A stretch of 64,000 bases of DNA, taken from contig CAYYCO010000002.1 of the NCBI GenBank assembly GCA_964470365.1, forward strand, positions 76,044-140,043, written 5' to 3'. A program made the position numbers and the translations under genes. The DNA comes from an uncultured Anaeromyxobacteraceae bacterium. Lineage in GTDB: Bacteria > Myxococcota_A > UBA9042 > DTJE01. The notes under the pieces were generated by a model. The model had not been told where the DNA came from. It did no database searches and saw only the letters and a program-made list of their open reading frames with translations. Positions 26,244 through 33,095 of the stretch are shown piece by piece. The first letter of the stretch is position 1. The number at the start of each line of letters is the position of its first letter.

Positions 26244-26462
26244 GGCGCCTCCTTGACCGGTGATAGCACCCGTCACGCAAACATTGCACACCTGTGGCAA
26301 CACCATCGACGCAATTATCGACAAAAGCCCAACAAATCCGGGCAGTCTGCCCATATTGCCGGCGGTTCCGCCACAGCGGAATAAAACACCGGGTTTTCTC
26401 GACAGCAGGTTTCGTGCCAATGCAGTCTCCTTCCGGTGCAATTCTCGATCGTGCGGAGGGCG

Positions 26463-26493
26463 CTTCCTGATTCTGAAAAACTGGCGTTATAAT
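26463..26493 (+). promoter_or_regulatory. possible sigma-70 promoter (perfect TATAAT -10) for the divergent lipoprotein gene
   Basis: TATAAT at 26488-26493 with a weak -35 (TTCCTG) 17 bp upstream, 68 nt before the ATG at 26561. Confidence 0.25.
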
Positions 26494-26560
26494 GCCCGCG
26501 GTTGCCGGCCGGAATCCGCCGGACGGTGTTGACGGCTTCGCCGGTTCGCTGGAGGAACAA

Positions 26561-27028
26561 ATGAAACGCGCCATCTTCATCATAGTCGCCGCGACCTTCC
26601 TGACCGCTTTCGCTGCATGCGGTTCCGGTGGCGGCAAGGAACCCGCGACGCCGGAACAGGCCCAGCCCGCGGCCGAACAGGCCCAGCCGGCCCCGGCGCC
26701 TCAACCCGCCGCGCCCGTCGAGGCGGCAAAACCGGCTCCGGAGGCAGCTGCAGCCCAGCCGGCCGCAGCCGAACCCGAGGGCGCCGAGGACCCGGACGAC
26801 GAATCCTGGGGCGGCGACGGCACGGTCGTGGATCGCGACAAGCTGGCGAAGGCCTACGAAGAGGTCTACTGCGCCCAGAAAAAGAACGAAATGGAAAAGA
26901 TTCTGGACATTTACAAGAACTACGGCTTTGAAAAGCCCGAAGATTTCATTTCGATGTGGATGGAAGCTGCGAAGGATACCGGTTGGGTCACGAAGGTCGC
27001 CCACGATGCCGCTTCGAAGTGCAAGTGA
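26561..27028 (+). CDS. small hypothetical lipoprotein with a Pro/Ala/Gln-rich linker
   Basis: Internal ATG (MKRAIFIIVAATFLTAFAACG, lipobox FAAC) preceded by GGAGGAA. C-terminal roughly 80-aa globular region. Confidence 0.5.
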   Translation: MKRAIFIIVAATFLTAFAACGSGGGKEPATPEQAQPAAEQAQPAPAPQPAAPVEAAKPAPEAAAAQPAAAEPEGAEDPDDESWGGDGTVVDRDKLAKAYEEVYCAQKKNEMEKILDIYKNYGFEKPEDFISMWMEAAKDTGWVTKVAHDAASKCK

Positions 27029-27040
27029 ACCCGGATCCCT

Positions 27041-27850
27041 TCACTTCCTTTCCGCGACGTCCGACGGCTTCATCGGCACCACGAACAGCTTCGTATTGAC
27101 CTCGTTCCTTCCGACGTAAAAATCACAGCCGAAGACCTTTTTCAGGACGGGGTAAAGCATTACCTCGTCGGGCCTGCCCGCGGCCACGACGCGACCGCCG
27201 TTCACAAGCACGAGCCTGTCGCAGACCAGCAGCGCCACATTCAGGTCGTGGATGGCGGCGACGACGCAGACTCCCTCCGACGATGCACGGGCGGCAAGCC
27301 CGTCGAGCATCCGGACGGAGTGGGATGCGTCCAGGTTGGCGGTCGGTTCGTCCAGCAGCAGCAGACGCGAGCCCTGGGCAACCGCCCTTGCAAGCAGCAC
27401 GCGCCTCTGTTCGCCGGCCGACAGTTCCATGTACTGCCTGGCGGCAAAATCCGAAACGTCGGCGAATTCCATCGCTTCCCGGACCGCGGCACGGTCCCCG
27501 GACGACTCGAAGACACCCCTGAGGTGGCTGATTCTACCAAGCGCGACCAGTTCGGCGACCGTCAGCGGAAAGCCCACGTGAAGGCTCGACGGCAGGAACG
27601 CGGCAAGCCTGGCCGCCTGCCTGCGCGGGATCGTTGCGGGATCCCTGCCGAAAACCCTGACCGAACCACCGCATGGACTGATGAGGCCGGCGGCAAGCCT
27701 GAGTATCGTCGATTTCCCGGCCCCGTTCGGCCCGAGGATGCCGGTGAAGGTCCCCGGCTCGAAGATTCCCGATACGCCGTCGGCGGCAGGCACCGGGGCA
27801 CCTGGCCATCTGAAAGACACGTCTTCCATCACGAGCGGGATCGGCGTCAT
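27041..27850 (-). CDS. btuD: ABC transporter ATP-binding protein (BtuD/FecE family)
   Basis: Walker A GPNGAGKST. ABC signature LSAGEQRR. Walker B LLLLDEPTANLD. In an operon with FecCD permease and a class-III substrate-binding protein, downstream of a cobalamin riboswitch. Confidence 0.85.
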   Translation of the reverse strand: MTPIPLVMEDVSFRWPGAPVPAADGVSGIFEPGTFTGILGPNGAGKSTILRLAAGLISPCGGSVRVFGRDPATIPRRQAARLAAFLPSSLHVGFPLTVAELVALGRISHLRGVFESSGDRAAVREAMEFADVSDFAARQYMELSAGEQRRVLLARAVAQGSRLLLLDEPTANLDASHSVRMLDGLAARASSEGVCVVAAIHDLNVALLVCDRLVLVNGGRVVAAGRPDEVMLYPVLKKVFGCDFYVGRNEVNTKLFVVPMKPSDVAERK

Positions 27851-28854
27851 CGGTTACCCCTCTTGAGCAGCCAGACGAACACCGGTCCGCCCACCAGCGC
27901 GGTAAGGACGCCCACGGGGGCCTCCGTCTGGAAGACCGGGAAAAGCACCCTGGTGGCGACGTCGGCAAGCACGAGGAAGGCCGCGCCCGCAAGCATCGAG
28001 GCCGGAACGGTGAACCTGTGATCCGAACCGACCAGCGCCCGGACCCCGTGGGGCACGATCAGGCCGACGAACCCGATCATCCCCGACACGGAAACCGCCG
28101 AGGCCACCAGCAGCGACCCCGCCGCCAGCACGATGCGCGTGGTCCGCTGCGTGTCGACGCCGACCGAGGCCGCGTCTTCCTCGCCGACGGTCAGAGCGTT
28201 CAGATCCGGCGACAGCCTGAACAGGACCAGACCGCCGGCCATGGTCATCACGACGGTCAGGATGACCGCCCATGGCCCGCGCACGTCGGACGAAAGGGTT
28301 CCCATGAGCCACATCAGCATTTCCTGGGCCTTCTGGGCGCGCACCACCGATTTCAGAAACATGATCACAGCCGACGCGAAGGTGTTGAATATCACGCCGA
28401 CCAGCAGCACCTCCCAGACGTTCAGACGCCCCCGCGAATCCCTCGACAGCCAGGACGTGCAGGCGATGGCCAGGAGCCCGAATACGAAGGCGAAAATGGA
28501 AACGCCGGCCTGCCCGAGAAACGCGGCGACCGGCAGGATCATGGCGAGGGTGCCGCCGACCGCCGCACCGCCCGCGACACCGATGACGTACGGATCGGCC
28601 AGAGGGTTCTTGAGGATTGCCTGGAAAGCCAGTCCGGCCGCGGCCAGCGACGCCCCGACCGAACCGCCTATGACGGTGCGGGGAAGTCTTTCACGCAGGA
28701 GGATGGCCCGATCGACCGGGGAGTCGCCGGTAATCGCGCCCAAAAAATCCATCCTGGTCGCGCCAAGCAGGATGGACAGCAGCGCCGCGCCGGCGGCGGC
28801 CAGCGCCATGATGACCAGAATTGCGGCCCTTCCGGCTTTCCCGCCCGCCATCAA
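27847..28854 (-). CDS. btuC: FecCD-family ABC permease (BtuC-like)
   Basis: About 9-10 TM helices. FecCD family pattern. 4-nt overlaps with the flanking genes. Confidence 0.85.
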   Translation of the reverse strand: MMAGGKAGRAAILVIMALAAAGAALLSILLGATRMDFLGAITGDSPVDRAILLRERLPRTVIGGSVGASLAAAGLAFQAILKNPLADPYVIGVAGGAAVGGTLAMILPVAAFLGQAGVSIFAFVFGLLAIACTSWLSRDSRGRLNVWEVLLVGVIFNTFASAVIMFLKSVVRAQKAQEMLMWLMGTLSSDVRGPWAVILTVVMTMAGGLVLFRLSPDLNALTVGEEDAASVGVDTQRTTRIVLAAGSLLVASAVSVSGMIGFVGLIVPHGVRALVGSDHRFTVPASMLAGAAFLVLADVATRVLFPVFQTEAPVGVLTALVGGPVFVWLLKRGNR

Positions 28855-29699
28855 TCATCCCCCTGCGGGGCAAGCGCCCTGATTTTTTCCGCCAGGGCCG
28901 CAGCCGCGACGACGGCGCCGGGTCCCGGAAGAAGTATCCCGTCGTCCGGGATGTGAATCACGGGGGCTTTCACGCCCGCATCCGACAGAATCGCCGCGGA
29001 CGGCTCGCCCCCCGCAATCCCGTCGATTATCAAGTCCGGCCCGGACTTTATCACCTGTTCAAGCGACCATGTGGGAAATCCGGTAGAGGACGGCCCGACC
29101 ACGTTGTCGAGCCCCATGGCCGACATGAGCTGGCCCTGGAAGGACGATGGTCCCGCGACCACCAGCGGCCTGGTTCCAACCACGAACATGGCCTTCATTC
29201 CCGGCATCCCGTTTCCCAGTTCGGACAGGCCACGATCGAATTCCGCCACCAGGCTCGAAGCCTCTGCGGGACGCCCCACCGCCGCGCCGATTGCTTTGAT
29301 TCCCGTCCGCACGTCATCGAAATCCTCAAACGCGAGCGGCAGAAACCGGACCCCGGCCGGAGCGAGGATCTCGACCAGCCTGCCTTTCAGTACGGCCGGT
29401 GAGCCGATGACGATATCCGGCCTGGCCGCCGCCACCGCCTCCACCGAGACGTCGAGGATGCCGCCGACGCGCGGTATGGCGCGGGCGGCCGCCGGTCTTT
29501 CGCAGTATCGCGTGGCCCCGACAATCTGTCCCCCGGCGCCGAGCTCGAACAGGATCAGCGTGACCCCGGGCACGAGCGAAACCACCCGGGCTTCGCGCCC
29601 CCTGCCATGTGTAACCGGCCCCGTGCCGCCGCTTCCGCACGCAGCCAGGGTCAGGGCGCACAGCACCATCATCGCGCCTGCGGTCCAGCGCATGCTCAC
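28851..29699 (-). CDS. btuF: periplasmic cobalamin/iron-complex substrate-binding lipoprotein (BtuF-like, Peripla_BP_2)
   Basis: Lipobox LAAC. RVVSLVPGVTLILFELGAGGQIVGAT...PDIVIG pattern of class-III SBPs. Confidence 0.75.
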   Translation of the reverse strand: MSMRWTAGAMMVLCALTLAACGSGGTGPVTHGRGREARVVSLVPGVTLILFELGAGGQIVGATRYCERPAAARAIPRVGGILDVSVEAVAAARPDIVIGSPAVLKGRLVEILAPAGVRFLPLAFEDFDDVRTGIKAIGAAVGRPAEASSLVAEFDRGLSELGNGMPGMKAMFVVGTRPLVVAGPSSFQGQLMSAMGLDNVVGPSSTGFPTWSLEQVIKSGPDLIIDGIAGGEPSAAILSDAGVKAPVIHIPDDGILLPGPGAVVAAAALAEKIRALAPQGDD

Positions 29700-30889
29700 T
29701 CGACCTCCAGCAGTGAACCGTCGCCGGTTTCGAGCCTGACGACGCTGTCGTTCTTCAGGCAGGTCACCCAGACCGTGACGGCAGCTTCATCAGGCCCCAC
29801 TGCGAGATCCCAGGGATTGCAGTTCACCGGCAGGCCGAAATCCCGCCGCGCGCCCGTCGCGGTGTCGATGACGGCCAGGCTGTTGTCGCCGGAATTGACG
29901 ACGTACAGGGATCCATACAGAAGTTTCATCCTGTTCGGCGAAAGCAGGCCGCCGGCCAGTTTCCTGACCCCCGCCGCTGGTCCGGCCCCGGTGTCGAAAT
30001 CGATTACCTGGTTCGCAAGGTTCAGCAGGACATAGGTGCGCGTCGCGTCCTGCTCGATGTCGATGATGCCGTCCATCATCCCCTGCTGACCGACGACCGA
30101 CGGCGCCCACGGGACGTCGACCCGGATCCGCGCGGCCGGGTCGAAAAGCAGCAGCGTGTCGTCGTTGAACAGGCCCAGGGTCATGAGTCCGCCGGGTCCC
30201 GGCCCCACGACCGTAGTGTTCTGTGTGGTCTCAACCGACAGATTCACGGGTTCCGAACCATCCCGCAGAACGGTGCCGGAAACGAGGTCTACCAGGAACA
30301 GCGCCGCCGTGGTGCCGCTGGCGATCCACGCCAGATCACCATCGATAAACATCCCGGACGGGTACCCGACCAGCGACCCGGGCGCCGTGGCAATCGGGAT
30401 CGCGACCGACACGGCGACCGCGGAATCGATACCCTCGAGCTCGATTCCCGCAAGACCGCCGGAGGTACTGGACACCACCGTCGAGTCGGCCTGGTTCCAC
30501 TCCGTGGTTCCGGAGCAGAGTACCCACGCCATATCGCCAGAAACGACAACCTCCTGCGGATTCTCGAACGGAAGCGGAATGATGTTGACCACCGCGCCAG
30601 TCTCCCGGTCGATCACCGTCAGGAAACCCTTTCCGTACGAAAGGCGGGATCCCTGATACGCAAAGTTTGCGTTGGTAACCAGAACCCTGTTATTCCATAT
30701 TGTTATGCCTTCAGGCGCCGAGAAGCTGCGATCCGGGGGAATGCCTGGCAGGTCGACTTCGACGACGTCTCCCGAATCGGCCCCGACCCAGGGCTCCGTG
30801 GCACACCCGGCGAGGCACGCCAGTCCGGCGGCCAGGAAGAACACCGGGATCCGCCCGCATTGAAGGGAATGAACGATGCGCGTCATCAT
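29696..30889 (-). CDS. beta-propeller surface lipoprotein encoded inside the B12 uptake operon (BtuG-like candidate)
   Basis: Lipobox LAGC. Repeated roughly 40-residue beta-blade segments (YVTN-type). Sits between the btuB and btuF genes. Confidence 0.5.
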   Translation of the reverse strand: MMTRIVHSLQCGRIPVFFLAAGLACLAGCATEPWVGADSGDVVEVDLPGIPPDRSFSAPEGITIWNNRVLVTNANFAYQGSRLSYGKGFLTVIDRETGAVVNIIPLPFENPQEVVVSGDMAWVLCSGTTEWNQADSTVVSSTSGGLAGIELEGIDSAVAVSVAIPIATAPGSLVGYPSGMFIDGDLAWIASGTTAALFLVDLVSGTVLRDGSEPVNLSVETTQNTTVVGPGPGGLMTLGLFNDDTLLLFDPAARIRVDVPWAPSVVGQQGMMDGIIDIEQDATRTYVLLNLANQVIDFDTGAGPAAGVRKLAGGLLSPNRMKLLYGSLYVVNSGDNSLAVIDTATGARRDFGLPVNCNPWDLAVGPDEAAVTVWVTCLKNDSVVRLETGDGSLLEVE

Positions 30890-32799
30890 AATTCAACCAC
30901 CACCGACCCGAACGCCGAGAAGCCCGGGAGAGGCTGCTGCAGGGAGTCCACGGAATCGGATTTGTCCGTGATGTTCAACAAGTCCAGCGCCAGCTTCAGG
31001 AATGGCTTCGGCCTGACCTCCAGCCTGACGTCAAGGCGGAACCTGCCCTCCTCGCCGACCGACTCGAATGCGTCCAGGAAGAAACCGGACTGCCACGACG
31101 GCATCAGGGCCAGCCTGAAGGGGCCGCCCGAAAAAGCCAGTTCGCCGGCAATCACGTGTTCCGGCCTGGCAGGCATGGCGTTTCCGGTGGCCGTGACCTC
31201 CGAAAACAGCCAGGTGTATGCGAGTCCTGCCTTGAACCAGCGCCACTGGACCGAACCCGACGCCTCGACGCCCCGCAGCACGGCCGAACCCGAATTCGCG
31301 GCCCGGATGACGAAGGCGGAAACCGGCTGGAAGGTGATCAGGTTGAAACCGTAATTCTCGAAGTACGCTGCCTTCACGTTGAACCAGCGGCCCCGCCCCA
31401 CCTCGATCCCGACGTCCCAGGCGATCGAGTCCTCCGGCTCCAGCGCAGGATTTCCCTGGACGAACCCGGTGTCGAAATACAGCTCTTCCAGCGTGGGCAG
31501 GCGGAATGACCTCCCGGCGTTCGCGGACAGCCTCACCAGCGGGTGCGGTTCGTACCATACGCCCAGCGCGGGCACGGCCCGGAAGCCAGAGCCGGAATCA
31601 TATTCAAGCCTTACATCGGCACTGACCTGCCACGGATCGGCGGGCGCGCCAGCGACGAGACCGACCGTCCCGGCGAAGGCGCCACGGCCGGGAGAGTATG
31701 GCGGCTGGCCGACCCTCCTGACCCGTCCGCCCTCGTAACCGCCGTCAATCCCGAGTCGGAGCGCCAGCCGCTCGATCGGTGCGTCGATCGTCGAAAAACC
31801 GGCGCCGATGCCGCCGGAAACCAGTCCGGTGTCCTGCGGCGGTCCCATGTAGGGAACCGGATCGCTGAAATTGAACATCAGGAACCTGCCCCACACCCAG
31901 GCCGAAGTCGCGCCGCGCAGGCCGAAAAGACGCGGGCCGCGCCAGCCGACCCTGGCAAGCACCCTGGTGTCGTCCTGGACGGCCGTGGCCGACGGGAACT
32001 GGTCCATTCCGGCCACCTCGCGGTCGTCGCGCCAGAATTCGACCAGCGCATCGACGCGGTGATCCGCGCCCGCTTCCGACTCGACCTTGATCAACGCCTC
32101 GCAGGCCGTCGACGCGTTGTGTTCCCTGTCGCGCCCGACCCCGTTCGAATCCGTGTATCTGAAACCGCCGCCCGAATGGAGCACGCCGGCCGACGCCATC
32201 ACGCCGGTGGCGCCGGCGGCGGCATCGAACAGGTGTGAATGCGAAGCCTTCAGCTTGAACGTGCCCGAGGAACCGCCCGAGACGACGGCACGCGTCAGGG
32301 TGCCCGACTCCATGACCGACGGCGTCCGGGCATCCACTGCCCCGCCTGCCGCGTCGTTTCCCCTGGCCGCGCCCTGTCCGCCGCGCACGATGTCGATGGA
32401 TCCCAGGGAAACCAGACCGAGCGAATTGAGGTCCGCCCCTCCCATGAACGGGGAGTTGAGCGGGATTCCGTCAAGCGTCACGAGCGTCGACCTCGGGTCG
32501 GATCCGCGGATGGAAACGGAAACCGACTGGCCGGCGCCGCCGCTCTCGCGCACAAGCACTGCGGGAACGGCCCTGACGGCGGCGGCAGGCCCGGCCGGCG
32601 AGTCGACCGCCCCGCCACCTTCGATTGTGGACGCCTGGCTGCTTTCCCTGGCCGTCGGATCGGCCGGGACCGGGTCGCCGGTCACGTCGATTTCGGGGAC
32701 CTCCACGGCGGTGGCGGCATCCTGCGCCCGGGAAGGAAGCGGGCAGGCCGAAGACAGCAGCAGAAGAAACAGAAAGGAAGGTGGTAACCGCGCAGACAT
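30886..32799 (-). CDS. btuB: TonB-dependent outer-membrane receptor (BtuB-like)
   Basis: Signal peptide. Plug-domain motifs (VTLDGIPLNSPFMGGADLNSL...IDIVRGGQGAARGN). Large beta-barrel region. First gene after the cobalamin riboswitch. Confidence 0.8.
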   Translation of the reverse strand: MSARLPPSFLFLLLLSSACPLPSRAQDAATAVEVPEIDVTGDPVPADPTARESSQASTIEGGGAVDSPAGPAAAVRAVPAVLVRESGGAGQSVSVSIRGSDPRSTLVTLDGIPLNSPFMGGADLNSLGLVSLGSIDIVRGGQGAARGNDAAGGAVDARTPSVMESGTLTRAVVSGGSSGTFKLKASHSHLFDAAAGATGVMASAGVLHSGGGFRYTDSNGVGRDREHNASTACEALIKVESEAGADHRVDALVEFWRDDREVAGMDQFPSATAVQDDTRVLARVGWRGPRLFGLRGATSAWVWGRFLMFNFSDPVPYMGPPQDTGLVSGGIGAGFSTIDAPIERLALRLGIDGGYEGGRVRRVGQPPYSPGRGAFAGTVGLVAGAPADPWQVSADVRLEYDSGSGFRAVPALGVWYEPHPLVRLSANAGRSFRLPTLEELYFDTGFVQGNPALEPEDSIAWDVGIEVGRGRWFNVKAAYFENYGFNLITFQPVSAFVIRAANSGSAVLRGVEASGSVQWRWFKAGLAYTWLFSEVTATGNAMPARPEHVIAGELAFSGGPFRLALMPSWQSGFFLDAFESVGEEGRFRLDVRLEVRPKPFLKLALDLLNITDKSDSVDSLQQPLPGFSAFGSVVVEL

Positions 32800-32854
32800 G
32801 CCCCTGTCCCCGAGGAGTTCAGTCCATCTGTTCCGGGCAGGTCTCCTGGCTTCG

Positions 32855-33005
32855 GGGGATCGGCCGTGGCCGAAGGTCTTTCCGCCTTCCCGGCAGGTGC
32901 CAGTGGCATACCGGAAAGACCCCGGAAATCATTCCCCCCCCGTTACAGTGGCGGGACCGCGCGGGAATCACACCCGCTTCCCTCTCCGGGACGCCGTCGT
33001 GTCCA
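32855..33005 (-). promoter_or_regulatory. cobalamin (AdoCbl) riboswitch in the btuB leader
   Basis: Minus-strand RNA ...GAGAGGGAAGCGGGUGUGAUUCCCGCGCGGUCCCGCCACUGUAACGG...GCCACUGGCACCUGCCGGGAAGGCGG... Carries the B12-box and conserved GGGAA, GGUGnnAUUCC, CCCGCcACUGU and GCCACUG elements of RF00174. Confidence 0.8.
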
Positions 33006-33095
33006 CCCGGAAAGAACGCGCAATCAATCGCACGACCGCGACGATTCGTCAACCTTGAACGAAGGGAACGCGGAAGGGGGGAGGAACGGGTGGTG

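Follow-up and report, generated by a model that had tools for sequence, protein, structure and literature searches.

Organization of the operon and its leader

In the 64,000-nucleotide stretch of DNA analyzed here (the window), five closely coupled genes form an operon on the minus strand, read in the order receptor, lipoprotein, btuF-like, btuC-like and btuD-like, with a cobalamin riboswitch aptamer in its leader (Table 1). Judged by sequence, the operon is of the corrinoid uptake type and is composed of a receptor, a lipoprotein and a BtuFCD set. The domain matches bear out this gene content, which had been proposed in an earlier note on the same DNA. That note also described 4-nt overlaps throughout, and these were read directly from the sequence at all four junctions (ATGA, GTGA, TTGA and ATGA in operon order). 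The btuF-like and btuC-like genes have alternative starts, namely an ATG 6 and 3 nt downstream of the longest open reading frame start; from these, their junctions become a 3-nt gap or a 1-nt overlap. Third-codon-position GC is 0.78–0.85 for all five genes in the called frame. A minus-strand open reading frame (27004..26315) was considered as a sixth gene of the operon and rejected since the conserved gene at that site lies on the plus strand.

Table 1. Features of the putative corrinoid uptake operon (positions within the window).
Feature	Position	Strand	Description
Cobalamin riboswitch aptamer	32819..33025	-	RF00174, 105.3 bits
BtuB-like TonB-dependent receptor	30886..32799	-	637 aa; Plug + TonB_dep_Rec_b-barrel
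Propeller lipoprotein	29696..30889	-	397 aa; acidic, predicted seven-bladed YVTN/YncE-type beta-propeller
BtuF-like substrate-binding protein	28851..29699	-	282 aa; Peripla_BP_2 (PF01497) 3.8e-23
BtuC-like permease	27847..28854	-	335 aa; FecCD (PF01032) 2e-75
BtuD-like ABC ATPase	27041..27850	-	269 aa; ABC_tran (PF00005) 2.9e-25

The riboswitch motifs quoted in the earlier note are visible in the leader, and a search with the RF00174 covariance model gave a clear, untruncated match over model positions 1–189 of 189 (E = 2.5e-25, gathering score 31.5 bits). The aptamer sits in the 5' leader of a B12-related gene, its 3' end (32819) being located 19 nt before the receptor ATG (32799) on the same strand. 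A minimum free energy fold of the leader revealed no expression platform (z = -0.10). Since 19 nt leaves no space for a terminator hairpin, the riboswitch probably exerts its control at translation initiation, as far as this spacing is a guide.

The receptor carries a signal peptide, a TonB-box-like segment (PEIDVTG), and Pfam Plug and barrel domains (7e-13 and 2e-32, respectively). Its best NCBIfam model is TIGR01779 (TonB-B12, 8e-28), with a score of 97.3 bits against an equivalog cut-off of 599.7; against the BtuB equivalog NF007926 it scored 86.9 bits where the cut-off is 836. The top sequence matches in the PDB were E. coli BtuB (5e-15), followed by BtuB2, BtuB3 and BtuB1 of B. thetaiotaomicron. 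Considering its domains, its nearest characterized relatives and the riboswitch upstream, the protein may be classified from sequence as a BtuB in the broad sense. The earlier note correctly stated that the receptor ends in VVVEL without a terminal aromatic residue (the C-terminus reads ...FGSVVVEL) and raised the concern of a sequencing or frame error. Among the homologues compared, a terminal phenylalanine was present only in the Ignavibacteriales copy, while the Myxococcota-type receptors had non-aromatic ends or short tails (VRIDI, TRLDL, VSISP, VIVSP, ...LPPAAGEET). Thus, the ending is a lineage trait that is conserved in the clade, and a sequencing or frame error was rejected.

The remaining genes encode a complete cluster A (BtuFCD-type) importer, with Peripla_BP_2, FecCD and ABC ATPase genes together and all above the Pfam cut-offs. 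The BtuF-like protein is itself a lipoprotein (LTLAAC) and matched the NCBIfam BtuF model NF002894 at 1.9e-18. The best NCBIfam matches of the permease and the ATPase were NF007081 (vitamin B12 permease BtuC, 2.4e-67) and NF007082 (corrinoid ABC transporter ATPase, 3.3e-65). All three matches fall under their cut-offs; as every NCBIfam equivalog cut-off was missed by the uptake components, they are divergent members of their families.

A family of acidic propeller lipoproteins beside the receptor

The second gene had been described in the earlier note as a lipoprotein of about 400 aa made of YVTN-like propeller repeats, and this description holds. The protein has a lipobox (LAGC, Cys29), followed by a linker of approximately 30 residues, and its predicted model presents seven blades of the YVTN/YncE type (pLDDT = 92). 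The best structural match was E. coli YncE (PDB: 3VGZ). The closest homologues of the operon's proteins come from Myxococcota MAGs, in agreement with the note's assignment to a host outside the Bacteroidota.

Sequence searches pointed to YVTN-repeat propellers in general. There was no significant match in Pfam, including no PF16819 match at E ≤ 0.01 and no PF21783 match, although two of 50 family members matched PF21783. A single YVTN repeat was recognized in NCBIfam (TIGR02276, 30.1 bits, cut-off 27.85). As a direct query against the PDB the sequence returned nothing at E ≤ 10, and a 627-aa family member and the Ignavibacteriales homologue returned nothing significant, BtuG2 chains appearing no better than at E of ~0.2–0.3. 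With the family profile, the strongest PDB match was the archaeal YVTN surface-layer propeller 1L0Q (2e-27). An exhaustive HMM search of metagenomic representatives at 50% identity gave 2714 matches at E < 1e-3, 512 at E < 1e-10 and 92 at E < 1e-30; a word-indexed homologue search (50-sequence profile) found 16 proteins at E ≤ 1e-10, far fewer than the exhaustive search.

Within the family, the lipobox cysteine is invariant (50 of 50 members). In all but one of the 38 members with a computable pI, the mature protein has a pI of 4.0–4.7 and a net charge between about -10 and -46, the exception having a pI of 5.8; a low pI is frequent in secreted proteins generally. The blades are degenerate, and blades I and II carry conserved hairpin insertions. 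Conserved polar residues include N110, Q112, S191, N319, S333, N336 and N358.

The genomic context of distant family members was taken from the contigs that encode them. In the window and in 13 more loci (L001–L011, L016 and L017), the receptor gene lies directly upstream of the propeller gene and is read in the same direction. Of the 14 loci that reach far enough upstream, 13 have RF00174 ahead of the receptor–propeller pair, among them loci of Bradymonadia, of Ignavibacteriales and of unclassified bacteria; over all 17 fetched loci, the GC content ranges from 31 to 76%. In L013, the propeller gene adjoins a receptor gene in divergent orientation and is accompanied by btuF/btuCD, yet no RF00174 match was found there. 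The pair persists without btuFCD in four loci (L003, L005, L006 and L017), so that the propeller goes with transport across the outer membrane, not with the ABC importer. Taken together, the sequence data indicate a lipoprotein family, so far undescribed and without a Pfam model, that is tied to the receptor and the riboswitch.

Proposed role of the propeller and its alternatives

A cobalamin-repressed corrinoid uptake operon may be envisaged as follows. When intracellular adenosylcobalamin is plentiful, the leader riboswitch would fold and most likely block translation initiation of the first gene, and the expression of the coupled downstream genes would drop with it. When B12 is scarce, the BtuB-like receptor, the BtuF-like binding lipoprotein and the BtuCD-like ABC importer would be made. 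The propeller would then work at the outer membrane as the receptor's own partner, either capturing corrinoids or handing them to the barrel as BtuG does in Bacteroides. We lean toward this account, in which an outer-membrane-anchored, corrinoid-handling propeller is a functional analogue of BtuG. The propeller may bind corrinoids and associate physically with the receptor. Its exposure on the cell surface is the least certain part of the proposal. Outside the Bacteroidota and a few Proteobacteria, lipoproteins are mostly periplasm-facing, which speaks against surface exposure, and we know of no surface-export signal defined for the lipoproteins of Myxococcota.

The side of the membrane is also where the foremost alternative departs from the proposal. 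The propeller could face the periplasm from the outer membrane and, in place of a surface lid, act downstream of the receptor, for example by accepting corrinoid on the periplasmic side and passing it to the BtuF lipoprotein, or by stabilizing or assembling the receptor. By default, Lol sorting in most diderms leaves lipoproteins in the periplasmic leaflet of the outer membrane, and the fold matches include propeller lipoproteins of the BamB type. YncE, the nearest structure, is likewise a periplasmic protein beside a cofactor receptor (10.1101/2022.06.07.495086). This arrangement is nonetheless rather unlikely in our estimation: the periplasmic face is the one on which TonB engages TonB-dependent receptors, and the BtuF of the same operon already performs the periplasmic binding step. 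While the loci that have the pair without btuFCD fit either side of the membrane, a periplasmic carrier would have no downstream partner in those loci. To our knowledge, BtuB has no periplasmic lipoprotein partner, which also counts against this arrangement.

A more distant alternative is that the propeller does not bind the receptor at all, being either an enzyme of the lactonase, lyase or remodelling type that acts on corrinoids or some other substrate, or a passenger gene without a link to uptake. Matches to enzymes were no better than those to non-enzymatic propellers, and the conserved positions of the family belong to structural repeat motifs (P, G, N-P, S-G-x-N); no set of His, Asp or Glu residues is conserved. 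A passenger gene is hard to reconcile with the strict adjacency to the receptor behind RF00174 across lineages of 31–76% GC. Both forms of this alternative are considered improbable.

With the propeller as a receptor partner in mind, a broader and more tentative reading is that, in Myxococcota, Bradymonadia, Ignavibacteriales and other bacteria outside the Bacteroidota, BtuB-type receptors are capped by a second, separate family of propeller lipoproteins that captures corrinoids at the cell surface and that either arose independently or is an ancient relative of BtuG with shifted blades. If true, lipoprotein-assisted TonB-dependent B12 uptake would be widespread and convergently evolved and no speciality of the Bacteroidota, in which such systems are, according to earlier work, an adaptation to life in the crowded gut. 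Lipoprotein-assisted vitamin capture would then extend to environmental bacteria of soil, sediment and freshwater, whose communities are structured by corrinoid exchange. The family would also present a second, independent scaffold that binds B12 very tightly; BtuG itself is in use as a reagent that strips corrinoids from samples (PMC10888822).

Relationship to BtuG and other known systems

The earlier note had likened the propeller to Bacteroides BtuG, for which structures are available (PDB: 3DSM, 8BMX, 8BN0, 8OKV and 8BLW for B. thetaiotaomicron BtuG1–3). One part of this claim stands: the gene comes directly after that of a BtuB-like receptor in a locus with a B12 riboswitch, and the product is modelled as a seven-bladed propeller. 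A family relationship is not upheld, and in a structural comparison YncE, not BtuG, was the best match. PF16819 (DUF5074) is present on the BtuG1-like proteins recovered here and absent from the window propeller. With a comparison profile that is a patchwork of BtuG fragments biased to BtuG1, hhalign scored the propeller family at 74–106 against BtuG and at 174 against generic YVTN propellers, and the blade register against BtuG was ambiguous. For this purpose, fragments of BtuG1 were reconstructed by way of a HMMER alignment to 8ptf_A and used as a query, which returned sequences of at most 274 aa. A PF16819-positive protein (P0162) was followed as a lead to BtuG sequences and rejected as a generic YVTN protein.

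That the propeller is a true, if diverged, orthologue of BtuG (DUF5074) that came from the FCB group by descent or by transfer and binds B12 in the same pocket is very improbable, since BtuG and the propeller family are each closer to generic YVTN propellers than to one another, for all that they share fold class, lipoprotein nature and gene position, that hhalign against a BtuG1/DUF5074 alignment gave 97–98% probability, that two of 50 members weakly match PF16819 (best E = 1.7e-4), and that the family profile matches the BtuG1 chains 8ptf and 8blw at ~1e-5 to 2e-6. From sequence comparison, the propeller is thus placed outside the BtuG/DUF5074 family, with a likeness confined to fold class and genomic role. 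As a result, the binding residues of BtuG are not transferable to it.

The BtuG of Bacteroides is a lipoprotein with seven propeller blades, and its gene adjoins btuB in a riboswitch-controlled locus; the protein forms a lid on BtuB and has a negatively charged face to which B12 binds (PMC6143338, PMC10404256). The window propeller resembles it in having seven modelled blades, an N-terminal lipoprotein signature with a flexible linker and a strongly acidic character, and its gene likewise lies beside a BtuB-type receptor in a cobalamin riboswitch locus with btuFCD.

The strongest relatives by sequence profile, the archaeal YVTN surface-layer propeller 1L0Q and the bacterial YVTN-repeat proteins (TIGR02276), are built from regular repeats that are nearly identical and are not linked to B12 loci, whereas the propeller family has degenerate blades, a lipobox and fixed synteny with the receptor. 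E. coli YncE, also a seven-bladed propeller, is encoded beside the PQQ receptor PqqU/YncD and resides in the periplasm; its deletion was without effect on PQQ uptake (10.1101/2022.06.07.495086), which weighs against the role proposed here. It differs from the propeller in being soluble and not a lipoprotein, in the divergent orientation of its gene relative to that of its receptor, and in the absence of a riboswitch; sequence identity between the two is 16%.

A TonB-dependent receptor that is co-transcribed with a ligand-capturing lipoprotein, as in the layout of this operon, also occurs outside the Bacteroidota in the TbpA/TbpB and HpuB/HpuA systems of Neisseria and Pasteurellaceae. TbpB and HpuA have other folds, bind other ligands (transferrin and haemoglobin) and rely on a dedicated Slam translocon; the loci examined here showed no gene resembling Slam. 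Finally, the E. coli-type btuB system shares with this operon an RF00174 leader just ahead of the receptor start, a BtuB-related receptor and components of the BtuF, BtuC and BtuD types. Relative to that system, the operon in the window combines all of the components in one transcription unit, adds a further lipoprotein, anchors BtuF by a lipid and has a receptor that ends without a terminal aromatic residue.

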